32,000 nucleotides of DNA from Paracoccus suum (GTDB taxonomy: Bacteria; Pseudomonadota; Alphaproteobacteria; Rhodobacterales; Rhodobacteraceae): positions 840,001 through 872,000 of the forward strand of contig NZ_CP030918.1 of NCBI RefSeq assembly GCF_003324675.1, written 5' to 3'. Position 1 is the first letter of the stretch; every line of letters starts with the position of its first letter. Positions 8,348-21,661 of this stretch are shown piece after piece. The position numbers and the translations under genes were made by a program. The notes beneath the pieces are model-generated. The model saw only the letters and a program-made list of their open reading frames with translations, had not been told where the DNA came from and did not search any database.

Positions 8348-10480
8348 TTGCGCTGCGGAGCCCGTTTGAACCAGCTTGTCGAATTCAACCAAGACCTTGT
8401 TGCCGAGCTGCGGGAAGAGTGTGCGGAAACTGACCTGCCGCTCGAGGACGTCGCATTCGATCGGCTCTGCGAAACTCTGGAAGCCGAAGGCGAGATCGAG
8501 ACGTCCGACAGATGTGCTTATCGAGGGGCTGCATCCGGAAAGTCCCTTCGGATCGATGGTCATGGGGGTGACCCCAGAGAAACCGATGGCATCCTCAGCG
8601 TCATTGTCTGCGAAGTCTTCGACGACGAACAGCCGCCGACTTTGAACGCAGCCGACGCCAAAAAGCACTTTGGCCACTTGATCAATTTCGTCGCAGCCGT
8701 ACGGCGGCGGGAGTTTCGGGACCAACTGCACATCGAGTCACCCGAATTCGGCGTTGCCATGATGATCGCCGAGTCATGGTCATCCGTGACCAAAGTCAAA
8801 TTGATCCTTGTCACGAACGCGATCTACAGCGCCCGGACAGATGCCGTCGTTGCTGGAAGCATTTCCGACATCCCCGTGACCTATAACATCTGGGATTTGA
8901 CCCGTCTGCACAGGGTTGAAACCACGGGCTCCAAGGAAAAGATCGTCGTCAAGTTTGCCGAAGACTTCGGCGGAGGCCTTCCAGCCCTTCGAGCTTCTGG
9001 TCCGGAGTCAGAACTGCCATCCTATCTAGCTGTCATCCGTGGCAAACAGCTGGCTGACATTTATGACAAGTGGGGCGCGCGAATGCTGGAGTCAAACATC
9101 CGCAGTTTCATTCAGGCGCGCCGAAAGTCGGTCAACGAAGGGATCCGGGACACCATCAAGGGCGAACCCGAGATGTTCTTCAGCTACAACAACGGGCTGT
9201 CCGCGACCGCAGACGCCGTCGACATCGAGATGGACGGGGCCGGTGCCCACATCCTTTCGGCGAAAAACCTGCAGATCGTCAACGGTGGCCAGACGACCGC
9301 TTCGCTGCATGCAGCATTGAAGCACAGCCCTGAGAACCTGGACCGCGTCCATGTGCAGATCAAACTGACGGTGGTACCTTCCGAAAGTTCCGAGCAAGTC
9401 GTGCCGAACATCTCGAAGTACGCGAACAGCCAAAACAAGGTCAGTGTCGCCGATTTTTTCTCGAACCACCCATTCCACATGCGGATGGAGGGATACTCGC
9501 GCCGTGTTTCCGCGCCTCCAGCGCCGGGCATGAACAGGCAGACCAAATGGTTCTATGAAAGGGCGCGGGGACAGTACCAAGTGGAGCGGGCGAAGCTGGG
9601 AGGCGCCGATCGGAAGCGTTTCGATTCCGAACATCCGAAGGCCCAGCTCTTCGCCAAGACGGACCTTGCCAAGGTCGAACTTTCTTTCCGGATGAGACCG
9701 GACACCGTGAGCAAGGGGGCGCAGAAGAATTTCGCAGCCTTCGCATCGGAGATAGGAGAAGCGTGGGCGGCCAGTGACAGAAAGTATGACGAGACCTGGT
9801 TCAAACGCCTCATCGCCAAGGTGATCATATTCCGCGCCCTCGAGAAGGCTGTCCCACGACAGGAATGGTACCCGGGCGGATACAGGGCCAACATCGTAAC
9901 CTACGGTATTGCCAAGTTGGCCCATGACGTCGAAAAGGGCGGGAAGGTGCTGGATCTCGATCGGGTCTGGAATGACCAGTCCGTTCCGGAAGCGTTGATG
10001 AAAACTTTCCTCATTGCCTGCGAGGCCGCGGCCGACGTGATCACCACTACGGACAGTGGCATCCGCAATATCTCAGAATGGGCGAAGAAACAGGGATGCT
10101 GGTCTTCTGTCGCACGTGCCGAGGTTGCCTACGATGGCGGACTTGAGGACTTCCTCATAGAGCCTCAGGACGCCAGAGCGGCCGAACGTGACGGTCGCCG
10201 TGAAGAAGCGATGATTTCCGGGATTGAGGCACAGTCAAAGGTGATTGCGCTTGGCAGCGCCTTCTGGGGAAGGTTGCGTGAGTGGACCTCTGCTAGCCCT
10301 TCATTCTCAATGAAGAACGACGGCATCTTGAAGGCCTGCAGCCAGCAGGAGCGCCGCTTGCCGTCCGAGCGCCAATGCATTCTCGCCGTTGAAATCCTCG
10401 GACGTGCCCGCGAAGAGGGCTATGTCGACGATGAGGAGACACCCAGAATCAGGATATCCGGCAAAGTGCGGTCCCATTGA
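8348..10480 (+). CDS. AIPR-family (abortive infection phage resistance) protein
   Basis: About 700 aa. The core ...MLESNIRSFIQARRKSVNEGIRDTIKGEPEMFFSYNNGLSATADAV...LQIVNGGQTTASL is the AIPR signature as I know it. There is no ATG start. TTG at 8348 or, better, TTG at 8366 (GGAG 5 nt upstream) are the candidates. Confidence 0.88.
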   Translation: MRCGARLNQLVEFNQDLVAELREECAETDLPLEDVAFDRLCETLEAEGEIETSDRCAYRGAASGKSLRIDGHGGDPRETDGILSVIVCEVFDDEQPPTLNAADAKKHFGHLINFVAAVRRREFRDQLHIESPEFGVAMMIAESWSSVTKVKLILVTNAIYSARTDAVVAGSISDIPVTYNIWDLTRLHRVETTGSKEKIVVKFAEDFGGGLPALRASGPESELPSYLAVIRGKQLADIYDKWGARMLESNIRSFIQARRKSVNEGIRDTIKGEPEMFFSYNNGLSATADAVDIEMDGAGAHILSAKNLQIVNGGQTTASLHAALKHSPENLDRVHVQIKLTVVPSESSEQVVPNISKYANSQNKVSVADFFSNHPFHMRMEGYSRRVSAPPAPGMNRQTKWFYERARGQYQVERAKLGGADRKRFDSEHPKAQLFAKTDLAKVELSFRMRPDTVSKGAQKNFAAFASEIGEAWAASDRKYDETWFKRLIAKVIIFRALEKAVPRQEWYPGGYRANIVTYGIAKLAHDVEKGGKVLDLDRVWNDQSVPEALMKTFLIACEAAADVITTTDSGIRNISEWAKKQGCWSSVARAEVAYDGGLEDFLIEPQDARAAERDGRREEAMISGIEAQSKVIALGSAFWGRLREWTSASPSFSMKNDGILKACSQQERRLPSERQCILAVEILGRAREEGYVDDEETPRIRISGKVRSH

Positions 10481-10611
10481 GGTCGGGCTGCAGCGGCACC
10501 GTTGTGTGAATCACGCCGTTGCCTTCGCGTGCACAAAGGGCGACGCGCTCACACCCGTCCCCGGCCGCCCTTTGAACCTTCGCTCGACTATTACAGCGGT
10601 GGAAGCTTCAT

Positions 10612-11052
10612 TCAGTGGACCCGCCGCCAACCGGTCGTCAGCCTGATCCTGACGGGGGCGTCATCCTCTGAGGCGTCGGAGCCGCCGCCTATCGGGATCA
10701 CCCTGATTTTGTAACGCGCCGCCCCGTCCGCCTTCGAAATCTCGAAGGTATCGCGCGCGTTGGCCATTTCCTCCCTGAGGAACTTGGTCAGATAGGTGAT
10801 CCGATACTCGTTTCGTGTGCCTTTTGGCGCATGCATTCGGTTGTTGTAGTATACGAAGCGAAGGCGCAGAATCTGACCACTAGGCGTTTCGCAGTCGATC
10901 CATGCCGAAGGGTTCAAGGTTGCCGGATCAAGCTTGGGCAAGAAGGCAAGAAGCTCGCCATCACCTTTCGGCACCAGAATGCCCCCCATGTGGCCACCTG
11001 TCGTTCCGACGTCATTGGCACTGAGTGTCTTGATGAAGGTTTTGATCGTCAT
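10612..11052 (-). CDS. Stand-alone EcoRII N-terminal-like (B3/DNA-binding pseudobarrel) domain protein (146 aa)
   Basis: FIKTLSANDVGTTGGHMGGILVPK...RFVYYNN....GTRNEYRITYL parallels EcoRII YIKRLSANDTGATGGHQVGLYIP...AIYYNS...GKTRNEKRIT. The real start is the ATG at 11052, in an ATGA overlap with the SNF2 stop. The upstream part of the 177-aa track ORF is Arg/Pro junk. Confidence 0.75.
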   Translation of the reverse strand: MTIKTFIKTLSANDVGTTGGHMGGILVPKGDGELLAFLPKLDPATLNPSAWIDCETPSGQILRLRFVYYNNRMHAPKGTRNEYRITYLTKFLREEMANARDTFEISKADGAARYKIRVIPIGGGSDASEDDAPVRIRLTTGWRRVH

Positions 11053-12869
11053 GGCTTTACCGGGCTGATGGCGAGGGCGCGCCTGATGTCCTGTGCGTCC
11101 CGACTGGAAACCGGGACGGTTTCGTTGGCAAGGTCGCTCTTCCAAGCGGAGCGTTCGATCATCACCTCCTCGACCGTGTCCTTATAGAAGAGGCGGTAGA
11201 CCGTGACTGGTTCGGTTTGGCCACGTCGATGCGCCCTCGCGCTCGCCTGAGCTTCGAGGGCAGGGTTCCAGACGGGGGTGAAATGGATCACGACGGTTGC
11301 TGCAGTGATGTTCAGGCCCGCCCCTGCCGCCTTCGGATTCAGGATCAGGCATGCGGCACCATCGTGGGCTGAGAAATCATCGATGATGGTCTGGCGGTCC
11401 TCCTGCGGGGTCGATCCGTTGATCGCTCCCCAATACGTTTCGGCAAAGTCTTTGCAGGCAGTCCGGATCAAGTCACCGATCCGATTGAACAGGGCAAAGA
11501 CGATGACCTTCCGGCCATTCGCAAATGCCTCCCGAAGGAGTTCGACCGTTCGTTCGAGCTTCGGCGTAAGCAGAGGTAGGTCCTCACGGGTAACGATCTT
11601 GGCGTCGTCCCAATCGACCAGCGCCGCATCCGGAGTCCTGAGCCAAGGATGCGCACAGACCAGCTGAAGCTGCAGGGTCGCGACGAGGGGGCCCGCGACC
11701 GGATACTTTTCCAGCGTAGCCTCGCGGACGTTGTCGTAATGCCGGGCCAGACCATCATCGAGTTCCAACGGCAGATCGATGTCGATGCGATCCGGAAGAT
11801 CGGCGGCGACATCACGCACTCGCCTTTTCAGGATGATTGGATCGGTCAAGCCGCCCAGCGCCTGTCCGGCCTCAAGCGTGTCGGGGAACGCGACTTCGAA
11901 GACGGTTTTGTCCCCGAGCATGCCCGGGATTGCGAAATCGGCCAACGACCACAGATCCATCAGGGTATTCTCGACCGGGGTGCCGGTCATCGGTATCGAC
12001 TTGCGGCGAGGGATCGTCACAATTGCCTGCCGACGGTTGGAGTGGGGGTTCTTGATGGCCTGAGCCTCGTCGCAGATCACCCAAGCCCATTCAAAGGACG
12101 AGAAGATCGAGATGTCGTTCACCATCGTCTCGTAGGTGGTGATCACTACAGATGCGACCTGTAGGTCACGATAGATTCCGGCACGATGGGCTCCCCTGTG
12201 AACCATCAGCGAGAGGCTTGGCGCGAACTTGCCGAACTCGCGCACCCAGTTTGCGATGAGGCTGGTCGGACAAACGATCAGGGCCGGTGCGGCGTTCTCC
12301 GGTGGATCCATAAGCAGGAGTGCGATGATCTGAAGCGTCTTGCCGAGACCCATCTCGTCCGCAAGGATCAAACCGCCAGTCCTATTGACCGTTTCCCACA
12401 TCCATCGGACGCCCCGTGCCTGGTAGGGGAAGAGGTCGGCGTGTAGGCCGGGGATGTCGATCTTGGGCGGCAATTCCTCGGCGGTGATCTTGCCCGAGTG
12501 CAAGAGATCGGGTGCGGCCTCGATTTCGAGGCCCTCGGGTGGTGTTCGCAGCAGCCTGATCGCCGTGGCGTACGAAATGTCGTCCGGGGCTTCGTCACCA
12601 AGGCATTTTGCGACCAAGCCCGGAGCGTCCTTGGGTAAGGGGCGTAGGATTGCGCCGTCCGCAATCCAAGCATGCGAAATCGACGGCGCCTCGATCAGTC
12701 GAACTTCCCCACGAACCATTCGCTTGCCGCCCAGCGCCACGGACATCTTCCCGGATACCCGGGAGAGGATCGCAACCGGTTCAACAACCCGCTCAGAGAC
12801 GGAAAATCCTTCAGGAACCTTTGCGAGCAGCGCGTCGAAATCTCGAGGCAGGGCAGCAAGTTTGCTCAT
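11049..12869 (-). CDS. SNF2-family (SF2) helicase/translocase
   Basis: LFPYQARGVRWMW, LADEMGLGKTLQ (motif I), DEAQAIKN (II), MTGTPVEN (III) and LNITAATVVIHFTPVWNPALEAQASARAHRRGQ (V/VI) are all present. Confidence 0.92.
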   Translation of the reverse strand: MSKLAALPRDFDALLAKVPEGFSVSERVVEPVAILSRVSGKMSVALGGKRMVRGEVRLIEAPSISHAWIADGAILRPLPKDAPGLVAKCLGDEAPDDISYATAIRLLRTPPEGLEIEAAPDLLHSGKITAEELPPKIDIPGLHADLFPYQARGVRWMWETVNRTGGLILADEMGLGKTLQIIALLLMDPPENAAPALIVCPTSLIANWVREFGKFAPSLSLMVHRGAHRAGIYRDLQVASVVITTYETMVNDISIFSSFEWAWVICDEAQAIKNPHSNRRQAIVTIPRRKSIPMTGTPVENTLMDLWSLADFAIPGMLGDKTVFEVAFPDTLEAGQALGGLTDPIILKRRVRDVAADLPDRIDIDLPLELDDGLARHYDNVREATLEKYPVAGPLVATLQLQLVCAHPWLRTPDAALVDWDDAKIVTREDLPLLTPKLERTVELLREAFANGRKVIVFALFNRIGDLIRTACKDFAETYWGAINGSTPQEDRQTIIDDFSAHDGAACLILNPKAAGAGLNITAATVVIHFTPVWNPALEAQASARAHRRGQTEPVTVYRLFYKDTVEEVMIERSAWKSDLANETVPVSSRDAQDIRRALAISPVKP

Positions 12870-13702
12870 CGGACGGCCGCCTCGTCCACGTGCGGTGACA
12901 TGAGCGCCCGCAATTCCGAAATGGAGTAGGGTATCGGGCGTCTCGTATGCACGGCGCGGTGGCAGTTGGGACAGAGCGGTGCCAGATCGATCGCCGGATT
13001 GTATGCGCGGGGCACAGCCAGAAGGGACAAGGCCTCGAGATGGTGGACTTCAATGATGCTCCCGGCCTCGCCGTATGCCGACCTCGGCTCGATGCCGCAG
13101 CATGCGCATTTCTCGCCGTGCAGCCGGATACAGAGCAGGCGGTTTCGAGGGTTCCGTTCGCGTCGCCGGATTGTCGAAACTCGAATCGCGCCCTCATGAG
13201 CGTGCGCACCGTCTTTTTCCTCCTCCTCGATAACGTCATAGCCTATAAGTTCCGCCATTGCGGCCATCAACGGCACGATCACGTCCCGGCATACCTTGGC
13301 GACTGCCTCGTCCTGATCGTCTGGCAACCCCCGGGCTGTTGCTGTGATCTTGAAAGCTCCGGAATCCACAGTCCAATCATCCCGGCCTTGGCCAAAAAGT
13401 TGGAGATCCACTGCTGGACTGATCGACGCCACCAAGGCGCGTGCCAACCCGACGTCCTCTGCGTCTGCGGCCTGTATCTGGCGGACGATCGCTCCCGCAA
13501 ACTTCCCGAAGCCGAGCGCTACCCGATATCCCCGGATCCCGTAGGGACGCAGCTCTGCAATCGGGCCGTGGCGCTCGTCCAGATCGGCGAACCAGAGGCG
13601 CAGGCCGGTCCTGGTGCCGCTTTGGTCGACCGCTATACCGATCGCGGCGCCGGTTCCCGCCTCCAGCTCCCTTTGGATGATGTCCTGCCGATCGGAGATC
13701 AT
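12866..13702 (-). CDS. HNH endonuclease with an unassigned ~170-aa N-terminal domain
   Basis: The C-terminus RRRERNPRNRLLCIRLHGEKCACCGIEP...IIEVHHLEAL...NPAIDLAPLCPNCHRAVH is a canonical HNH/zinc-finger nuclease. It has an ATGA overlap with SNF2 and a 1-nt spacer to the GHKL stop. Confidence 0.85.
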   Translation of the reverse strand: MISDRQDIIQRELEAGTGAAIGIAVDQSGTRTGLRLWFADLDERHGPIAELRPYGIRGYRVALGFGKFAGAIVRQIQAADAEDVGLARALVASISPAVDLQLFGQGRDDWTVDSGAFKITATARGLPDDQDEAVAKVCRDVIVPLMAAMAELIGYDVIEEEEKDGAHAHEGAIRVSTIRRRERNPRNRLLCIRLHGEKCACCGIEPRSAYGEAGSIIEVHHLEALSLLAVPRAYNPAIDLAPLCPNCHRAVHTRRPIPYSISELRALMSPHVDEAAVR

Positions 13703-13703
13703 C

Positions 13704-15332
13704 TTATTCGTCGTCGTCCTCGGTCAGTTCCGCGGGTTCAGGATCCGGCATGTACCGCAGCAGCTTGCGGAGGTTGGCCGAAATCTCTTCGCGGATATCC
13801 TCGAAGACGGGTTCGAGCTCGGGATCGGTGTTGTTCTGCTCGGCCATTGCGAAAGCGTAGAGCAGGAGGTCCATCCCCTCGACCGCGTAGCCGTTGGCGG
13901 CGGCACGCTGATAGATCTTCTGATAGAAGTCATGGTGCTTGTTGAGCTGAACGCCCGGCACATGGTCCGCGCTTCCCGCGCTGCGGTAAGCGGGCTCCCA
14001 GAGATGGCCATTTGTGATCGTTGTAACCGCTTCGACGTGAATGCTGTCAGGGCTGACGAAATTCTGGACTGGCGCCTTGATCCTGATCTTCGGGCCGCGG
14101 TTGTTGCTGATTTCGGCAGTTTGGGTGCGTACGTCCGCAGCATTCACTTGGGGTTTCGTTGTGTTTGGCGTGCCCGCGATATTCTTGTTCGCGCTGCTGT
14201 GGTCGACGGTCTTCTTTTGGTTGGCGTCGTCTCGGCTTTCGCGGCGATAGCGAGCACCAGCTTCGCGATAGACCGGTTGAAGCAGTTTGCGCAGGCCGTC
14301 CTCAAGATCCGGATGGAACAGGATCCGTGACTTCTTCACATCGATTCGGAATGCCTCGTCCAACTGGTGGCCGAAGTCGAACTCGATTCTGAGCAGCGAG
14401 GTGTGCGGTTCAGGCGCTCCGAACACATCCATCCAGCCGCCGTCTTGGATCAGGCGGCCCTCGCGATAGACATAGAAGCCTTGCGCCCTGTTCGAGATCT
14501 TCGCGAACTCGGCCTCTTCTTCTTTGCCCATGTCACGGCGGTGCGGAAGGATCCACGCCTTCATTTCGGCAACTTCTTCGCTCCCGTCGAAGAGTTCGAC
14601 GACCACCTTTTGTTTGTTCGGGGCAAGTACTTGCTCGGACCGTCCGGGATAGAACGGGTTCCATGGTTTCACCGGAGTTCCGTTGATCCGGATCACTACG
14701 TTCCGTTCCCGGCTGTCATTTTCATCAAGGAATCTATGGAAGACGAGGGAGAGGTGCTTGCTAAGGGCCTCGGACATCCGCTTGACAGCGGCCTGTTCCT
14801 TTGTGCCTGGCGTGTATTCCTTCGAAAGCAACCGGTCGCAGTTTTCCCAAATGACAAGCGTACCCGTCGGACCGCAGTACTCGTCGAACATCTCGTTCTG
14901 ATCCGCCGTTACCGGCTCAGCCAACATTTCCCACACGTTACGCTGTTCGACGTGCTCTAGGTCCCATGTAAGCTTAGCCAAGGGTTGGTCCTCAGACCGC
15001 CGAGAGATCACGCTGTAGCGCTTGCAAACCGAGCTGGAGGCGGTCTTGAGGCCCAAGCCGAATTTTCCAAGGCTCTTTGCGTCGGGGCGCCTGTCCGCAC
15101 CGTACCGCATGGCGTTCCGGACTTGCTCTTGGTTCATCCCGTGACCATCGTCGCCGAAATAGACGACCTTCCGTCCGTCATGCAGGAGCTGGATTTCGAT
15201 GTTGATGTTCTCTGCTCCTGCCGCGATCGAGTTGTCGATGATGTCCGCAGCTGCGGTCCTGACGTTGTAACCGGTGTCGCGCAGGCCATAAATCAGCCGC
15301 GAGGCGTTCGGGTCGTTGATAAGGTCGCTCAT
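13704..15332 (-). CDS. MORC-like GHKL (HATPase_c_3-type) ATPase
   Basis: Bergerat-fold motifs are readable: AADIIDNSIAAGA (N box), DDGHGM (G1), GKFGLGLK (G2). About 300 aa of uncharacterised C-terminus follow. It has an ATGA overlap with vsr. Confidence 0.88.
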   Translation of the reverse strand: MSDLINDPNASRLIYGLRDTGYNVRTAAADIIDNSIAAGAENINIEIQLLHDGRKVVYFGDDGHGMNQEQVRNAMRYGADRRPDAKSLGKFGLGLKTASSSVCKRYSVISRRSEDQPLAKLTWDLEHVEQRNVWEMLAEPVTADQNEMFDEYCGPTGTLVIWENCDRLLSKEYTPGTKEQAAVKRMSEALSKHLSLVFHRFLDENDSRERNVVIRINGTPVKPWNPFYPGRSEQVLAPNKQKVVVELFDGSEEVAEMKAWILPHRRDMGKEEEAEFAKISNRAQGFYVYREGRLIQDGGWMDVFGAPEPHTSLLRIEFDFGHQLDEAFRIDVKKSRILFHPDLEDGLRKLLQPVYREAGARYRRESRDDANQKKTVDHSSANKNIAGTPNTTKPQVNAADVRTQTAEISNNRGPKIRIKAPVQNFVSPDSIHVEAVTTITNGHLWEPAYRSAGSADHVPGVQLNKHHDFYQKIYQRAAANGYAVEGMDLLLYAFAMAEQNNTDPELEPVFEDIREEISANLRKLLRYMPDPEPAELTEDDDE

Positions 15333-15865
15333 CTTCGTGTTTCCTGCTCGCCGGATGAAATTCCGGACCTCGTGCGCCTGTTGGTCGACAGGCCATCCGA
15401 TGACAATTCTGCATTTGTTTCAATGCCCTGCAGCCATGCGGCGATAATACTGATCAAATTGTCCACCTGAAAGGACCGCGTCGCACATTCCCAGACGACA
15501 AGAACCCGCCAGCCGTAGCCCAGCAGAGCCTCGATTGCGCGTGTGTCCCGCTCCCGGTTGGCTTCGATCTTTGCGGACCAGAATTCTGGCCGGGTCTTGG
15601 GAATACGAAAATGCTTGCAGTCAGCGTGACCATGCCAAAAGCAACCGTTCACGAAGATAGCGCACTTGTGCTTCCGCATGACGATGTCCGGACAGCCCGG
15701 GAGGGAACGGACGTGCAACCTGAACCGGTAGCCGATGGCGTGGAGAGCCTTGCGCAGGACCAGTTCCGGCTTGGTATCCGCCGAACGGACGCGCGCCATC
15801 ATCTGTGATCTGGTAAGGGGCGCCTTCTTCTCAGCCAACACGTTCCCTTCGCGACCGGAGGGCAA
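15329..15865 (-). CDS. vsr: Very-short-patch repair endonuclease
   Basis: [24 protein letters not shown]...[26 protein letters not shown]...[16 protein letters not shown]...[11 protein letters not shown] matches E. coli Vsr almost motif for motif. The start is non-ATG (TTG 15865, GTG 15841 or TTG 15838) and overlaps the end of the methyltransferase gene. Confidence 0.92.
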
Positions 15866-16931
15866 CCATGTTAGTCAACCATGGAGCCATCGCTTCGGCG
15901 ATCGCAACCGAAACAGGCGCCGCGACGGCGTTGCCGAACTGCCGATATGCTTGGGTGTCACTTACCGGGATCTTCCAGGGATCGTTGGAGCCGGGACGGT
16001 CGAAACCCATAAGGCGCGCGCATTCCCGCGGGGTCAGGCGGCGCGGGTTCTCTCCAGGCTGCTTGACCAAGATTTCAGACCCATCCTTATGATACCGAGC
16101 GCTGAGTGTGCGGGCCACGTTTTCGGGGCCGACCAGCCCGAAACCGAAGCCATTGCCTGCCCTGCGATGCTTCTCGGCATACCGCTGGAGGTACGACCAG
16201 AGGCCATCAGTAAGCGTGTAACGGTCGTTGACCTTGCCGAAGCTACCGGTCGTGTAGCGCCCGTCTGCGGCCTCCGACCCGTCCTCGGGGTGGAGGATCG
16301 ATGCGAGGGTAGGGTTGGGCCCCGGCGGAACGAACACATCATCGAAGGAGAAGGTCGTCTTGTAGTCCCTGCGGAACCCAGAAATGAAAATTCGCTCACG
16401 ATGCTGCGGCACCCAAGAACGGGCATCTATCACGCGGTAATCAACCTCGTACCCGAGTTCGTCCAAGGCATGCAGGATGACCCGCATCGTGTTGCCCTTG
16501 TCATGGCTCAACAGATTCTTGACGTTCTCGAGCAAGAAGGCCCGGGGCTGGTGATGGCGCAGGATCCGGACGACGTCGAAGAACAGGGTCCCCTGGGTCT
16601 CGTCCGCGAACCCATGAGCTCGACCGAGCGAGTTCTTCTTGCTGACGCCAGCCAAAGAGAACGGCTGGCAGGGAAATCCGGCCAGAAGCAGATCATGATC
16701 AGGAATGTCTGACGCGGCAACCTGCGTGATGTCACCAGCGATTTCATGGTCGCTTCCAAAGTTAGCGCGATAGGTCTCCTGAGAGTACTTGTTCATCTCG
16801 CAGGTGAAGACGCATTGTCCACCAATTGCGTCGAAGCCACGCCGGAGGCCCCCGATTCCCGCGAACAAATCGATGAACTTGAAGGGTGCTTCGGGGTGTT
16901 CCAAGAATGTTTCCTGCACGCTTGTCGCCAC
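15831..16931 (-). CDS. DNA (cytosine-5)-methyltransferase
   Basis: [10 protein letters not shown] (motif I), [11 protein letters not shown] (IV), FLLENVKNL (VI), QHRERIF (VIII) and [11 protein letters not shown] (X) are present. The GTG start at 16931 has AGGA 4 nt upstream. Target specificity cannot be read from the sequence. Confidence 0.95.
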
Positions 16932-17611
16932 AATATCCTGGGCCGTGGGATCAAGCCCTCTGCTGATGCTATGCTAGGCAGCCTTCGCTGTCGATGGTTT
17001 GAGCGTAGCCGCCGGTCCGCGATGATGATGTCCTATCATTGGTCCATTAACAGATCGGTTTGAAGACAGCCGCGTCGTCGGTTCGGAGTTGCCCGACCCA
17101 CCGAGACAGGCCCGGGTCCGGGTCGAACAACAGATCGTGTGGCAAAGCCGTCATGCCCACGGCCTGATTTTCGGCATTGGAGCCGTCACTTCGACCTCCC
17201 GCAGCATCCCGCCCACGAGCGGCCCCTCGCGGATTCAGCCCAGCGCTTGCCACCAGTCGTCATAGCCGCGCCGGGCCGCTTCGATCTGCTGCGGATGGGG
17301 GGAGAACGTGACTGGGCAGGCCAGGATGTCGAAGATCTTCCACGTGGTACGCGCGCCCACACCGACACAGGCGTAGATCCGCGCCACCATCAAGCCGGGC
17401 CACGAGGCGGGGACTGGAATAAAGGCGGAAGGTGGAACTGGGGCTGGCAGTGGCGTTCCGGGCAGAACAAACGAGTAGTTGGTGCAAGATACACGTCACT
17501 GATCCAATGCCTTTGTGGGAAACGCTGAAACTGAACACGGATAACGGTATGAGCGCACATCAAGCCTGCGGTGGCGCCCTACACTTGTGTTGAGGCTTTG
17601 CACCCCCTCGG

Positions 17612-18949
17612 ATGCGCGCTATGAACAACACCAAGGCATATCTGATCAGGACGCGTCTCTTCATGTTTTCACGACTGCGGCTAGAAAACTTCAAGGCTTG
17701 GTTGGACCCCGAGGACATTACTTTGCGTCCACTTACGATGCTCCTCGGCACCAACTCATCCGGAAAGTCGTCTCTTATCCAGAGCCTGCTATTACTCAAG
17801 CAGACCGCGCGTTCGCCCGACCGGACTGTTCATCTCAATCTTGGTGGAGATGAGCTAAACGATCTTTTCAATTTTGGGTCCTTCGAAGACGTCCTGAACC
17901 ATAGCGCTGAGTCTCCGCGTCTATTTTCGATAGAATTCGACTTCGATAATCGTGGCGCAAGCAGAATTCATAAGGGCAGTTTTGGGTGCTCTTACGGCCA
18001 GACTTCGTCTGGCAGCGTCGCTGTTCAGGCTCTCACTCTCAAAGCTGAGGGACGTCAGTTCAAAGCCATTCGCCGAGAGAAAGGCGCTTTCTCGATCCTC
18101 GTAGATGATGAGCAACTGCCTCGGGCAAAGGGCCGCAATTACGCGCCTGAGCGCTCGATTGCCTTTTCGGCTGATGCGATAGCTGTACTCGATAAAGAAG
18201 GACAACTGCTTGAGGACCTCAGCCTAGCAATCCGGCAGGAACTAGATCGCACCATCTATCTTGGGCCGTTGCGTCGTAAGCCGGAACGCGATTACCCTTG
18301 GAATAAAAGCAAGCCAGGCGACGTGGGCAGCGATGGACGTGGCGCAGTAGACGCCCTCTTGGCAAGTACCCTATTGCGCGGCGATGAACAGAATTACGTT
18401 GTTGATGGCGTCTCTCGCTGGCTGCGTCATATGGGAGTTGCAGACAAGCTTGAGGTCAGACAGCAGGGGCGCTCAAATCGCTATGAATTAATTGTGCATC
18501 GTGAAGGCGTTGCATGCAATCTGCGGGATGTGGGTATCGGCGTATCACAGGTATTGCCGGTTTTGGTTGTGTCCTACTTTGCCCCTAAGGGTAGTACGAT
18601 CTTACTTGAAGAACCCGAGATTCACCTGCATCCGCTTGCTCAATCAGTTTTGGCTGAGCTTTTCGTCGACGTCAGTATGGAGCGCGGGGTTCAGTTTATT
18701 GTTGAAACGCATTCTGAGCATCTCTTCAGACGCATGCAGACACTAATTGCCAAGGAAAACACTTCGGCGACTGATGTGGCAATGTATTTCGTGAAGCGAA
18801 ACGGGCGTTCTGCGAAACTATGTACCCTCGAAATTGATGATTTTGGTCGTGTGAAAAACTGGCCTGACGGCTTTTTTGGCGACGCGCTCGGAGAGACTCG
18901 TGAACAAGCACGACTCATGTTTGAGCGGCAGAAGACACTTCAGCAATGA
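17612..18949 (+). CDS. AAA/ABC-type ATPase (AAA_15/21-like with a DUF3696-like C-terminus)
   Basis: LRLENFKAW...LLGTNSSGKSSL (Walker A), ILLEEPEIHLHP (Walker B), VETHSEHLF (H-loop) and the C-terminal ...DDFGRVKNWPDGFFGD. The true start may be the ATG at 17663 (MFSRLRLENFKAW). Confidence 0.85.
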   Translation: MRAMNNTKAYLIRTRLFMFSRLRLENFKAWLDPEDITLRPLTMLLGTNSSGKSSLIQSLLLLKQTARSPDRTVHLNLGGDELNDLFNFGSFEDVLNHSAESPRLFSIEFDFDNRGASRIHKGSFGCSYGQTSSGSVAVQALTLKAEGRQFKAIRREKGAFSILVDDEQLPRAKGRNYAPERSIAFSADAIAVLDKEGQLLEDLSLAIRQELDRTIYLGPLRRKPERDYPWNKSKPGDVGSDGRGAVDALLASTLLRGDEQNYVVDGVSRWLRHMGVADKLEVRQQGRSNRYELIVHREGVACNLRDVGIGVSQVLPVLVVSYFAPKGSTILLEEPEIHLHPLAQSVLAELFVDVSMERGVQFIVETHSEHLFRRMQTLIAKENTSATDVAMYFVKRNGRSAKLCTLEIDDFGRVKNWPDGFFGDALGETREQARLMFERQKTLQQ

Positions 18950-19476
18950 AAGAGCGCTATGTCGTTGATACCAACGTCTTGATTGCAGCAAGTGCAGCTG
19001 ACCCAGTGCACCCATCTGACATTGCCGCAACGCCGACTGATCCGGTATTGCGCCAGGCTGTTTGGGCTTGGTTGGACGAGTTTGAACGGGGAAACTGTCG
19101 TCTTGTGTTGGACTCAGAAAATCGCATTTGGAATGAGTACAACAATAAGCTGAGACATACTGATTTCGGCATTCAGGTCGTAATATCAAAGTGGAGCAAG
19201 TGCGCGGTCGACAACGTTGCGGTGGATTATGACGAGCACGGACATGGCACTTTGCCGGCAATGCTGGAGCCCGTCATCCATGACCTAGCAGATCGGAAGA
19301 TCGTTGCAGCTGCGCTGGCATCCTATGTAGATTTTGGTGAAGGGTGTATAGCGTTTGCTGGTGACACCGATTGGCATGACTGGGAGGAGGCCCTTCTGGC
19401 ACAGAACGTTGACCTCGAACCGATTATCGAGGCTTGGTCGCGCGCGAAGCATATAGAGAAACAAGAGAGAGTGTAG
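18946..19476 (+). CDS. PIN-like domain nuclease (176 aa)
   Basis: YVVDTNVLIAAS (first acidic residue), LVLDSENRIWNEY, DLADRKIVAAAL and the GDTDW acidic positions fit a PIN fold. It has an ATGA overlap with the ATPase stop. Confidence 0.65.
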   Translation: MKERYVVDTNVLIAASAADPVHPSDIAATPTDPVLRQAVWAWLDEFERGNCRLVLDSENRIWNEYNNKLRHTDFGIQVVISKWSKCAVDNVAVDYDEHGHGTLPAMLEPVIHDLADRKIVAAALASYVDFGEGCIAFAGDTDWHDWEEALLAQNVDLEPIIEAWSRAKHIEKQERV

Positions 19477-19484
19477 GAAGCCTG

Positions 19485-20198
19485 ATGCAAAGCTTCTTTC
19501 GCTTTCCTTCCACGCCTCATCTTGCTTGGCTGAGTCGCCTTGCTGTTCCACGCGAGGATAAAGTGCTTTGTCGCGAAGATGCCGCAAGTCTGCTATCGGG
19601 CGAAGTGGTTGTCGAGGAGAAGCTTGATGGTGCCAACATTGGACTATCTCTAGCCGAAGACGGTTCTCTCCAGGTTCAAAATCGCGGGCAATATTTGATC
19701 GCGCCATTTGTAGGGCAATTCGTAAACGTGCCCGAATGGCTTTCGCAGCATGGTGAGGATATCCGTGATCGTCTTGATGGATCGCTTATAATCTTTGGTG
19801 AGTGGTGTGCTGCACGGCACTCAATTAGTTATGACCGCCTGCCTGATTGGTTTGTAATGTTCGATGTCTATGATCGGGCGATTGCACGTTTCTGGAGTAC
19901 TGATCGACGAAACGCTCTCGCTTCTGCGGCCAACCTAGTGACTGTGCCAACCTTGCTGCGAGGGAAAACAAATTTGGCTCAGTTGGAAGAGATAATGGAT
20001 AAACGGCTTAGCCGATATGCGCTTGAGCCGATGGAAGGTTTAGTTGTTCGTCGAGAGAGCGCTCTGTGGTGTGAGAGGCGCGCCAAGCTTGTACGTCCAG
20101 ACTTCACTCAGGAGATTACGGAGCATTGGAGTCGGCACAGTATCAAGTGGAATCGAGTAGATTGGTCGGTCCGTTCGGACCCTAACTCTGCCACGTAA
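19485..20198 (+). CDS. ATP-dependent RNA ligase family protein (Rnl2/RNA_ligase-type nucleotidyltransferase)
   Basis: FPSTPHLAWLS N-terminus, EEKLDGANIG (motif I KxDG), IIFGEW (III), FVMFDVYD (IV) and EGLVVRRE...AKLVRPDF (V). The ATG at 19485 has AGGAAG 4 nt upstream and lies 8 nt after the PIN stop. The track ORF start at 19434 overlaps the PIN gene. Confidence 0.85.
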   Translation: MQSFFRFPSTPHLAWLSRLAVPREDKVLCREDAASLLSGEVVVEEKLDGANIGLSLAEDGSLQVQNRGQYLIAPFVGQFVNVPEWLSQHGEDIRDRLDGSLIIFGEWCAARHSISYDRLPDWFVMFDVYDRAIARFWSTDRRNALASAANLVTVPTLLRGKTNLAQLEEIMDKRLSRYALEPMEGLVVRRESALWCERRAKLVRPDFTQEITEHWSRHSIKWNRVDWSVRSDPNSAT

Positions 20199-20207
20199 TC
20201 GGTTTTT

Positions 20208-20227
20208 CTTGTCAACGCTTGGTCAAG
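20208..20227 (+). repeat. Direct repeat, right copy (cttgtcaacgcttggtcaag)
   Basis: It matches 4907-4926 at 18 of 20 positions and lies 10 nt after the RNA ligase stop. Confidence 0.5.
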
Positions 20228-20356
20228 CCGCGAATGCGTTTCTGAGCGCACGTCGATCCTTCCAAAGCCAGTGAGAAACGCCGAGCGAACGCAAATGAAT
20301 CTGCCATCTCAAAGGCTTGTCGGCCAAGTTGCTGAAATCAAAATAAAAAAATCAAC

Positions 20357-20469
20357 GGGTTCGGCTCATAACCTGAAGGTTGCAGTCACAGGGGCTCGTT
20401 GACTCGATGGAGGAGCTTTGGACAACTGGCAGGTCGTTCGGTTCAGGTCTAATCCTGTCCCCGCAACCA
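20357..20469 (+). pseudogene. Degenerate tRNA-fMet 3' fragments (probable att remnant), not a functional tRNA
   Basis: 20357-20385 (gggttcggCTCATAAcctgaaggttgcag) resembles the initiator-tRNA anticodon arm and variable loop (E. coli GGGCTCATAACCCGAAGGTCGTCGG). 20431-20469 (aggtcgttcggttcaggtctaatcctgtccccgcaacca) resembles AGGTCGTCGGTTCAAATCCGGCCCCCGCAACCA, with a 1-nt and a 5-nt insertion. No D-arm or 5' acceptor strand is present upstream, where the sequence is AT-rich (aaataaaaaaatc). Confidence 0.55.
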
Positions 20470-20482
20470 GAACGATCACGCA

Positions 20483-20507
20483 AAACGCCGCCCCCAGGGC
20501 GGCGTTT
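20483..20507. terminator. Bidirectional-type intrinsic terminator hairpin (AAACGCCGCCC-cca-GGGCGGCGTTT)
   Basis: An 11-bp perfect stem with an 8-bp GC core has an A-tract on one side and a T-tract on the other. It starts 14 nt after the CCA of the tRNA-like fragment. Confidence 0.55.
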
Positions 20508-20773
20508 GCCGTTCAAGGGGACGGGAACGCAGGCAATAGCCGGGCCGATCGTAAAAGCGCGGGCAAACGCGAGCGGCCAAGCGACCGACGGATGGGCGGC
20601 AGTGCGATAACTGTAAAATTACTCAAAATTTGGGCGCAGACACCCAGAATCAAGACGGGTCCTGCCACGCGGCCCCGTTGGGCCGTCGCCCACCCTTTTC
20701 CGGAATACCCTGAGAAGAGACCCCAGACGCACGTCTCCCTACGACACGCCATCACCTGTCCGAGGCCACCGCC

Positions 20774-21661
20774 TTAGAGTGCGCTGACCTCAGTCCGGCT
20801 AAAATCTATGTGAGCGCGGCTTAGGTCCGGCCCAAGGAATATCCCGACCCCCGCCTCGACGCTACGTGAGGTCAGTTCCAACTCTCCGGACGCGAATTGA
20901 AACAGGAACGTCCCCGGCTCGCCGGCGAAGCGGACAAAACCCTTGGCACGGTGGAGCCGCGTGGGTGCGGCGGCGAACCACGCCCGAAAGGCCGCACGAT
21001 CGACTGGACGATCCAACGTCACCACCACAGATCTGAAGGTCGCGTCATGCGGGGCGCTCCTCAGGACGGCGCGGGGCCGCAGGTGCGTGCCCGCCAGGAC
21101 GGAGCCGGACATTTCGGTCCGTCCCAGGATTTTTGCCTCGGTATTCAGCGCGGCAATAAGCGACCGCACCCCGCCCTCAGCGGCTGTGTCGATCCGGTCC
21201 AGACGCGACAGCAGGACGACATCTGCCCCCGCGACTTGCGCCTCCAGGACGCGGGCGATGCGCGGGTCTGCGAGGCGCGCGGCAAAACTTTCGGCGCAGG
21301 CCACCGTGACGACCCGCTGGCAATCAAGGTCCGGCTCGGCATGGGCGATGCTGGTCAGCCGCTGCGGCTCGGCGACGCCGCTGGCCTCGATCACCAGGCG
21401 GTCGATGCTGTCCCGCATCGCGAATACCCGGTCGAAGGCGCGAAAAAGATCGCCGTCCATGCTGCAGCACACGCAACCGTTGGTTAGTTGCAGCACGCCC
21501 CCGCTAGCCCCGGCGATCAGGCCTGCGTCGATCTGCACCGCGCCGAAGTCATTGACCATTACCGCGATCCGCTGCGTCGCACCGGCTAGCAACTCGTTCA
21601 ACAGTGTCGTCTTGCCGGCTCCCAGATAGCCGCAGATGACGTTGATGGGCAGAGGCGTCAT
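20774..21661 (-). CDS. COG0523/CobW-family G3E GTPase (metallochaperone-type)
   Basis: ICGYLGAGKTTLLN (P-loop), the NGCVCCS (CxCC) metal motif and VIEASGVAEP are present. It has an ATGA overlap with the upstream amidohydrolase gene. Confidence 0.9.
   Translation of the reverse strand: MTPLPINVICGYLGAGKTTLLNELLAGATQRIAVMVNDFGAVQIDAGLIAGASGGVLQLTNGCVCCSMDGDLFRAFDRVFAMRDSIDRLVIEASGVAEPQRLTSIAHAEPDLDCQRVVTVACAESFAARLADPRIARVLEAQVAGADVVLLSRLDRIDTAAEGGVRSLIAALNTEAKILGRTEMSGSVLAGTHLRPRAVLRSAPHDATFRSVVVTLDRPVDRAAFRAWFAAAPTRLHRAKGFVRFAGEPGTFLFQFASGELELTSRSVEAGVGIFLGPDLSRAHIDFSRTEVSAL

Follow-up and report, generated by a model that had tools for sequence, protein, structure and literature searches.

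A horizontally spread ATPase, PIN-like nuclease and RNA ligase cassette of Paracoccus suum as a probable ligase-bearing relative of the HEC-03 defence system

A cassette of three tightly linked genes, encoding an ABC-type ATPase, a small PIN-like nuclease and a minimal RNA ligase, was analysed in a 32,000-nucleotide (nt) stretch of the Paracoccus suum chromosome (NCBI RefSeq assembly GCF_003324675.1, contig NZ_CP030918.1, positions 840,001 to 872,000 of the forward strand; hereafter ‘the window’, with coordinates counted from its first letter). The cassette is a real, horizontally spread three-gene unit, and its ATPase and PIN genes very probably represent the core of a defence system of the HEC-03 family. 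Sequence comparisons place the whole cassette in what appears to be a ligase-bearing clade of that family, with an ATPase close to NsnB of the Menshen system. The ligase may repair the cuts made by its own PIN partner, serving as a built-in antidote or reset; this reading draws on sequence relationships and on analogy, and we consider its chances to be evenly balanced. The cassette comprises the following features:

17663..18949, + strand: ABC-type ATPase (OLD-ABC/AAA_15-AAA_21, with C-terminal DUF3696), from Pfam, PADLOC models and homologue alignment
18946..18949, + strand: ATGA, in which the ATPase stop overlaps the PIN start (translational coupling), read from the sequence
18946..19476, + strand: standalone PIN-like nuclease of 176 amino acids (aa), from a sub-threshold PIN_3 match, a PADLOC model, hhalign and AlphaFold2 (AF2)
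19475..19480, + strand: AGGAAG, Shine-Dalgarno-like, 4 nt ahead of the ligase ATG and overlapping the PIN stop, read from the sequence
19485..20198, + strand: minimal ATP-dependent RNA ligase of 237 aa, consisting of the nucleotidyltransferase domain alone, from PF09414 and motifs

The original prediction, made from the bare sequence, had described three coupled genes on the same strand, and this organisation was seen again: the ATGA at 18946–18949 joins the first two genes, the PIN reading frame closes with a TAG at 19474–19476, and the AGGAAG at 19475–19480 precedes the ligase ATG at 19485. The tight ATPase/PIN junction recurs in related loci. The ATPase start, which had been placed at 17612, was revised. 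The open reading frame (ORF) is indeed open from the ATG at 17612 and ends at 18949; however, DNA homology to the nearest related loci extends from 17659–17663 to ~20175, that is, over the three ORFs alone, and homologous ATPases align from the methionine at 17663, leaving the first 17 codons (17612–17662) without a counterpart in any homologue. The true start is therefore most likely the ATG at 17663, 51 nt inside the longer frame, giving a protein of 428 aa. The ligase ORF is open from a TTG at 19434, and all homologues begin with M-x-x-FFRFP, corresponding to the ATG at 19485.

Related loci were surveyed using one genome per species, resulting in 80 loci with a PIN gene, each of which was scored by tblastn searches with the ATPase, PIN and ligase of the window. 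Adjacent ATPase, PIN and ligase genes on the same strand were present in 65 of these 80 loci, with a median of 15 nt separating the PIN alignment from that of the ligase. Syntenic triads in such numbers across phyla rule out chance adjacency, and the recurrence of the triad as a functional unit, which the original prediction had left to a survey, was thus established. Three further loci carried a ligase paralogue, and four loci were cut by contig ends, so that 68 of the 76 loci which could be judged for the ligase were ligase-bearing. The hosts include Alpha-, Beta- and Gammaproteobacteria, Cyanobacteria, Acidobacteriota, Verrucomicrobiota, Rhodothermales and Desulfobulbales. Close PIN homologues numbered 572 and were 65–95% identical in very different bacteria, with E-values down to 1e-109 for the PIN protein and 1e-140 for the ligase. 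Even among five distant PIN relatives (~ 30–36% identity for those retaining it), four kept the triad.

HEC-03 (Hma-embedded candidate 03) was described by Payne et al. (bioRxiv 10.1101/2024.01.29.577857) as a two-gene system of an ABC ATPase and a VapC-like PIN protein. The version from Pseudomonas cichorii cut plaquing by orders of magnitude in E. coli, with both genes required, and was assayed without isopropyl β-D-1-thiogalactopyranoside (IPTG) owing to toxicity upon induction; a ligase is not mentioned in that paper. The tested P. cichorii sequences were taken from its supplement, and the system is also listed in PADLOC-DB v2, where ‘HEC-03A’ denotes the PIN model and ‘HEC-03B’ the model of the ATPase, opposite to the naming in the preprint.

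Both core proteins of the window cassette are homologous to their HEC-03 counterparts. The ATPase is 36% identical to the tested P. cichorii ATPase WP_025259138 (BLASTP, E = 2e-69), and among PADLOC models it matched the HEC-03 ATPase (PDLC04148, 4.3e-93), followed by NsnB (8.6e-65) and PDC-M55A (1.3e-63); Pfam matches were AAA_15 (8.8e-25), AAA_21 (2.8e-22) and DUF3696 (1.5e-13). The PADLOC model of the HEC-03 PIN partner (PDLC04147) was matched by 75 of 75 PIN family members, with a best value of 1.3e-26, and the profile of the PIN family aligned to the tested HEC-03 PIN WP_025259137 with 99.5% probability (hhalign, E = 3.4e-22). The two systems also share a coupled operon in which a DUF3696 ABC ATPase is followed by a small PIN gene, as well as a location in defence islands. 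They differ in the third, translationally linked ligase gene of the window and in the PIN itself: the window protein belongs to a separate, strongly conserved subfamily, scores merely 3.9e-6 against the HEC-03 model, and comes from a family with a near-invariant DTN at the first acidic position, where the tested HEC-03 PIN has ETN. The original prediction had related the ATPase to those of Septu, Gabija and PARIS, a kinship that gave way to HEC-03 and Menshen NsnB as the closest relatives.

The absence of a described system covering these genes, as the original prediction had it, did not hold either. Apart from the homology of the ATPase–PIN pair to validated HEC-03, a conflict operon of PIN, ligase, ATPase and HNH genes was proposed by Burroughs and Aravind in 2016 (NAR 44:8525), according to a one-sentence description in a 2017 paper (PMC5499597), which files the PIN under PIN_3.COG1569. 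In that proposal, derived from gene neighbourhoods, the “RNA ligase would neutralize” the nucleases, in the words of the same secondary account. The ‘ATP-grasp’ ligase term of the Aravind group covers Rnl1- and Rnl2-type ligases. From this secondary description, we infer that the cassette probably corresponds to the proposed system: it has a PIN (with a weak PIN_3 match), an Rnl-type ligase and an ATPase, and an HNH gene is found in ~ 15 related loci, whereas the window holds a three-gene form without HNH. With the ATPase–PIN core already validated and, by the same account, the idea of a neutralising ligase already published in 2016, the value of the present assignment lies in its testability rather than in surprise.

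Motifs that the original prediction had found intact in all three proteins proved to be conserved in 70 orthologues of the ATPase and of the ligase and in 75 PIN sequences. The PIN alignment, which was used for conservation as well as for structure prediction, spans 25–70% identity; D8, D56, E64, D113, D116 and D142 are conserved in at least 90% of its sequences, and it keeps D8-T9-N10, E64-Y65, an invariant D116, R117-K118 and D142-W143. With this alignment AF2 produced a model with a predicted local distance difference test (pLDDT) score of 97.7, showing the alternating strand-helix order of PIN domains with the acidic residues at strand ends and helix starts. An earlier AF2 run with 13 close sequences had yielded one of five models at pLDDT 80 and a weak fold search. 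In a Foldseek comparison of the model with the PDB, the HARP RNase P 7e8o came first (E = 0.011, probability 0.91), other leading matches being VapC20, VapC, SMG6, PAE2754 and NYN domains; a search of the PIN profile against PDB sequences returned noise only. Conserved acidic residues, the order of the AF2 model and the hhalign match to the HEC-03 PIN agree with the original view of the middle protein as PIN-like. Taking together a sub-threshold Pfam match, non-significant Foldseek matches and profile homology, we regard the protein with moderate confidence as a divergent PIN, and its conserved acidic residues suggest an active enzyme.

The third protein matched the PF09414 RNA_ligase family at 8.6e-36. 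Its motifs I (K46 in EEKLDGAN), III (FGEW), IV (EG..R) and V (K.V(R)) are invariant among the orthologues, and K46, D48, G49, G105-E106, E184-G185 and K201 are invariant even when divergent ligase paralogues are included, which points to an active enzyme. The ligase profile reached the archaeal Rnl3-family structures MthRnl 5d1o (4.3e-4) and Pab1020 2vug, and marginally T4 Rnl2; the single sequence gave no match in the PDB, and PADLOC models gave none for this protein. From its remote similarity to Rnl3 and Rnl2 structures, the enzyme may seal RNA.

In the ATPase, GTNSSGKS (Walker A), EEPExHLHP and ETHSEH (H-loop) are invariant or nearly so. In the Walker B region an invariant EEPE is followed by HLHP, E-E replacing D-E, and the DUF3696 segment is strongly conserved. 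The protein is most variable at residues ~ 81–160, probably ‘Insert 1’ of the ABC fold, and also at 241–260 and 361–400. Across related loci (L006–L085) two classes of ATPase can be told apart, with only 48% identity between them; across this divide the PIN proteins are 67% and the ligases 62% identical, as similar as within the classes. For pairwise identities, the correlation between PIN and ligase is 0.69, as opposed to 0.33 and 0.29 for their correlations with the ATPase. PIN and ligase thus appear to evolve as a pair, and the ATPase seems to diversify or to be exchanged on a shared PIN–ligase backbone, as would be expected of a sensor. Two ATPase–PIN fusions (P0124, 494 aa; P0172, 315 aa) were also encountered; they are rare, look like deletions, truncations or assembly chimeras, and were not used as evidence.

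Resemblance to Menshen extends from the NsnB-type ATPase to its DUF3696 tail. NsnB, likewise an ABC ATPase, carries a DUF3696 helix, which AlphaFold 3 predicts to dock onto the PIN-like N-domain of the effector NsnC (PMC12065111). The PIN-like domains of Menshen have lost their catalytic residues and are fused to a separate C-terminal nuclease, whereas the window PIN stands alone at 176 aa, with conserved D8/E64/D116/D142 and no fused effector, and a ligase occupies the third gene. NsnA (ParB-DUF262 with ParBDB) was not found next to the cassette, and no DUF262 match was obtained among the neighbours scanned.

Three alphaproteobacterial loci bear on how the ligase might act. At these loci (3/80) the ATPase–PIN pair is accompanied by a PF09414-type ligase only 26–29% identical to the usual one, which is missing there, and the substitute is placed elsewhere: upstream on the opposite strand at L017:5873–6601(−) and L041:635–1258(−), and downstream at L042:8678–9379(+). 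The substitutes share the N-terminus MKKYGRTFHLP. This is non-orthologous displacement, and since the paralogue occupies other positions or the other strand, selection would seem to act on ligase activity in trans rather than on a fixed structural contact. A second group of four loci (L069, L071, L072 and L074; 4/80), from Pseudohongiella and related Gammaproteobacteria, has PIN and ligase without ATPase. Catalytic motifs of both proteins are intact there, and the upstream neighbours are housekeeping-like genes on the opposite strand. Because all four share one neighbourhood, this arrangement probably goes back to a single event followed by vertical inheritance. Action of the ligase in trans on the products of the PIN is suggested by these two groups and by the co-evolution of the pair: the pair persists without an ATPase, and a distant paralogue in a separate transcription unit can replace the ligase.

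PIN–ligase pairs lacking an ATPase would also fit an addiction module, in which a PIN toxin and a ligase antidote stabilise the island, the ATPase regulates, and phage defence is absent or secondary. The toxicity of induced HEC-03 and the position of the cassette in a low-GC mobile islet, with resolvase, transposase and plasmid genes nearby in some genomes, speak for this as well. We nevertheless consider it quite improbable, given that the homologous ATPase–PIN pair protects against phages with both genes required, that most loci lie in defence islands, and that post-segregational killing is not an obvious outcome with an enzymatic antidote, except where the toxin is much the more stable of the two. 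VapBC modules likewise use a small VapC-like PIN as the toxic component; unlike them, the cassette has no adjacent VapB-like antitoxin, only an ATPase and a ligase, and control would lie with the ABC ATPase.

Our preferred reading is that of a mobile, chromosome-borne anti-phage module, in which an ABC ATPase and a nuclease effector would be combined with a built-in repair enzyme. The ATPase is probably an oligomer. Its DUF3696 tail would hold the PIN, as Menshen NsnB suggests by analogy, and its fast-evolving insert (~ 81–160) may recognise an infection cue. Once released or activated, the metal-dependent PIN would cut RNA, likely tRNA or rRNA as in the case of VapC toxins and other ABC-ATPase-coupled nucleases, leaving 5′-phosphate and 3′-OH ends. 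The co-encoded Rnl-type ligase could seal such ends without kinase or phosphatase, acting in trans to mend leaky PIN cuts in uninfected cells and/or to allow translation to restart after the trigger ends. No kinase or phosphatase genes are present in the cassette, as would suit a ligase dedicated to breaks of the type that a PIN is expected to leave. A role as antidote or reset is suggested by the toxicity of ligase-less HEC-03 upon induction. The idea in the original prediction that the PIN cuts and the ligase reseals was retained as the best available reading, with the role of the ligase as its conjectural part.

Anticodon nucleases of the PrrC/RloC type are opposed by RNA repair through Pnk and Rnl1 of phage T4. 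Together with P2-OLD and PARIS AriB, they resemble the cassette, as modelled here, in coupling an ABC ATPase to an RNA-cutting effector that is countered by RNA ligation. They differ from it in the fold of the effector, which is HEPN or Toprim in these systems and PIN in the window, and in that their nuclease and ligase reside in opposing genomes, whereas in the window both belong to one host operon. In reversing toxin damage, the putative ligase antidote would be similar to DarG of DarTG, an antitoxin that enzymatically reverses the product of its toxin. The end chemistry has been worked out for P2-OLD, a metal-dependent nuclease whose 5′-P/3′-OH ends are resealed by T4 Rnl1 and Rnl2 with no need of end healing, single nicks being resealed ‘seamlessly’ (PMC12445682). 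AriB, an ABC-ATPase-coupled Toprim nuclease like P2-OLD, was also found by experiment to leave 5′-P/3′-OH ends. Products of metal-independent RNases, by comparison, require kinase/phosphatase healing ahead of Rnl-type ligation (PMC7824862).

The latter requirement bears on a second idea in the original prediction, namely that the cassette is a repair device against incoming tRNases, with the ligase mending host tRNAs while PIN and ATPase merely process or deliver substrates. Against anticodon nucleases, ligases of the Rnl type are the classic answer, T4 Pnk/Rnl1 versus PrrC being an example. However, most toxin RNases are metal-independent and leave cyclic-phosphate and 5′-OH ends, for which the cassette has no healing enzymes (PMC7824862); the ATPase–PIN partner is homologous to the effector pair of a tested defence system; and the ligase co-evolves with the PIN. 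In addition, tblastn found no PIN relatives in plasmid and phage collections, and a scan of viral contigs found none: the cassette is host-side and carried on the chromosome. We therefore regard this idea as highly unlikely.

The same experiments with P2-OLD raise the possibility that the ligase is part of the weapon. Double cuts by P2-OLD, followed in vitro by T4 Rnl1 or Rnl2, gave a shortened tRNA and a circular 12-mer (PMC12445682). A PIN cutting its target RNA twice, with the ligase joining the outer ends, could likewise produce shortened or circular RNA beyond phage repair: part of a tRNA anticodon arm might be excised and the rest resealed, a phage RNA might be the target, or the fragment might be circularised. 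In its wider form this amounts to ATPase-gated, protein-only RNA ‘splicing’ by the host, rewriting a specific RNA into a repair-proof lesion or a signalling RNA. The PIN and ligase are tightly coupled and co-evolving, the nearest solved ligase relatives (MthRnl and Pab1020) belong to the Rnl3-type family annotated by the Joint Genome Institute (JGI) as ‘ATP-dependent RNA circularization protein’, and the paradox of a defence reversing its own effect would not arise. Protection by HEC-03 without a ligase stands against it, in both forms, as does the free swapping of ligase paralogues, which is more in keeping with generic nick sealing than with a specialised joint reaction; PIN–ligase pairs that persist without an ATPase in one lineage would also be hazardous if the pair were jointly toxic. 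On balance we hold either form to be unlikely.

Several observations weigh against the preferred reading, in which the ligase mends RNA cut by its PIN partner. Protection by HEC-03 without a ligase (10.1101/2024.01.29.577857) means that the ligase is not obligatory, and four of the 80 loci (L019, L062, L078 and L083) have ATPase and PIN with no ligase within the flank. In the fifth distant relative (L094:5527–6891, PIN ~ 29% identical) the third position is taken by a metallo-beta-lactamase-fold gene (Lactamase_B_2, 1.3e-13); an LSDAT_prok (SLOG-like) gene comes after it, and there is no ligase at this locus. Full-text literature searches turned up neither a paper devoted to the combination of ATPase, PIN and RNA ligase nor an experimental study of a ligase-containing ATPase–PIN member. 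A ligase undoing the damage of the effector should also weaken immunity, as T4 Pnk/Rnl1 do against PrrC, and the model therefore requires a kinetic or regulatory asymmetry. The PIN fold is affected by a PIN_3 Pfam match of 1.8e-3 and 19.5 bits, under the 27-bit cut-off, and by Foldseek matches of which none reach 1e-3 (E ≥ 0.011, template modelling (TM) score 0.35–0.5).

As regards the RNA substrate, some ligase orthologues are annotated ‘DNA ligase’ (NCBI) or ‘DNA ligase III-like’, and a 250-aa HNH_2 gene, whose protein matches restriction-type HNH models, follows the ligase directly or within ~ 3 kb in ~ 15 of the 80 loci, and also in P. kulmbachensis. It is adjacent in L008, L010, L018, L020, L022 and L045, and nearby in L013, L027, L029, L030, L037, L039, L075 and L086. 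With respect to the ATPase classes, the divergent class 2 occurs at ten loci, of which eight have the HNH_2 gene; L015 and L016 have remnants only. Both facts could mean that the PIN, together with the HNH protein in four-gene forms, nicks DNA, and that the ligase seals host DNA or RNA:DNA hybrids to limit self-damage; neighbouring genes for DNA-targeting restriction systems would be in line with this. It appears improbable to us in view of the strong match of the ligase to the RNA_ligase family and the RNA ligases among the solved structures it matched, of leading PIN fold matches that act on RNA (HARP RNase P, VapC20 and SMG6), and of the term VapC-like that Payne et al. used for the HEC-03 PIN (10.1101/2024.01.29.577857). 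The window cassette itself lacks an HNH gene, none being found by tblastn.

Many recently described defences stop phages by cutting tRNA or other RNA, a state from which the cell may or may not recover. In the present case one operon of the host combines the cutter and an RNA ligase, a pairing that is kept in Proteobacteria, Cyanobacteria, Acidobacteria and Verrucomicrobia, among others. Should the ligase mend the cuts of its own system, the cassette would be a natural reversible immune module of the dormancy type, designed around an enzymatic antidote. An uncharacterised, ligase-bearing clade is now set beside validated HEC-03, and some 80 natural variants are available for comparison, among them forms that lack the ligase or the ATPase, that have gained an HNH gene or whose ligase has been swapped.

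A defence-island setting, on which the original prediction had called for a survey, was found both in the window and elsewhere. Window neighbours include Dcm, Vsr, an MzaB-like MutL/MORC-type ATPase, a weak HNH protein, a ZorD/DpdE-like SNF2 helicase, an EcoRII-N ORF and an MzaE-like AIPR protein; the cassette itself is flanked by a divergent dcm upstream and by cobW downstream. Pseudomonas cassettes adjoin an MmeI-type restriction-modification system with SNF2, McrBC and Wadjet, while those of Sphingomonas and Xanthobacter lie near mobile-element genes. Defence islands are where most of the loci are found. Further features of the window around the cassette are:

17500..20500, no strand: low-GC islet containing the cassette, from the composition profile
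17550..17567 and 20243..20260, no strand: imperfect 18-nt direct repeat of 83% identity, from a repeat search

The cassette has a GC content of 51–53% compared to 60–68% in its flanks, a sign of horizontal acquisition. The two copies of the 18-nt repeat bracket the cassette 45–95 nt beyond the coding block and may either be the scar of an insertion or match by chance.

Immediately upstream of the cassette, 8348–16931 holds a second defence region. It begins with the MzaE-like AIPR protein on the plus strand (8348–10480), and carries on the minus strand the EcoRII-N ORF, the SNF2 helicase, a 278-aa weak-HNH protein, the MzaB-like HATPase, Vsr and Dcm. Overall it looks like a modification-dependent system of the Mza or MORC type. 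In another frame of the minus strand, the EcoRII-N ORF (10612–11145) shares ~ 97 nt with the 3′ end of the ORF for the SNF2 helicase (11049–12869); possible explanations are a small gene in its own right, a C-terminal DNA-binding domain that a frameshift has split from the helicase, or a sequencing error.

Searches of the window for tRNA genes and Rfam families found none, and a scan for promoters and terminators scored no better than shuffles. A GC-rich hairpin was noted at 20478–20512, with 16-nt arms that are 88% complementary and a TTTTG after it on the minus strand. It probably terminates transcription of the convergent cobW gene (20774–21661, minus strand), and possibly that of the ligase operon as well.

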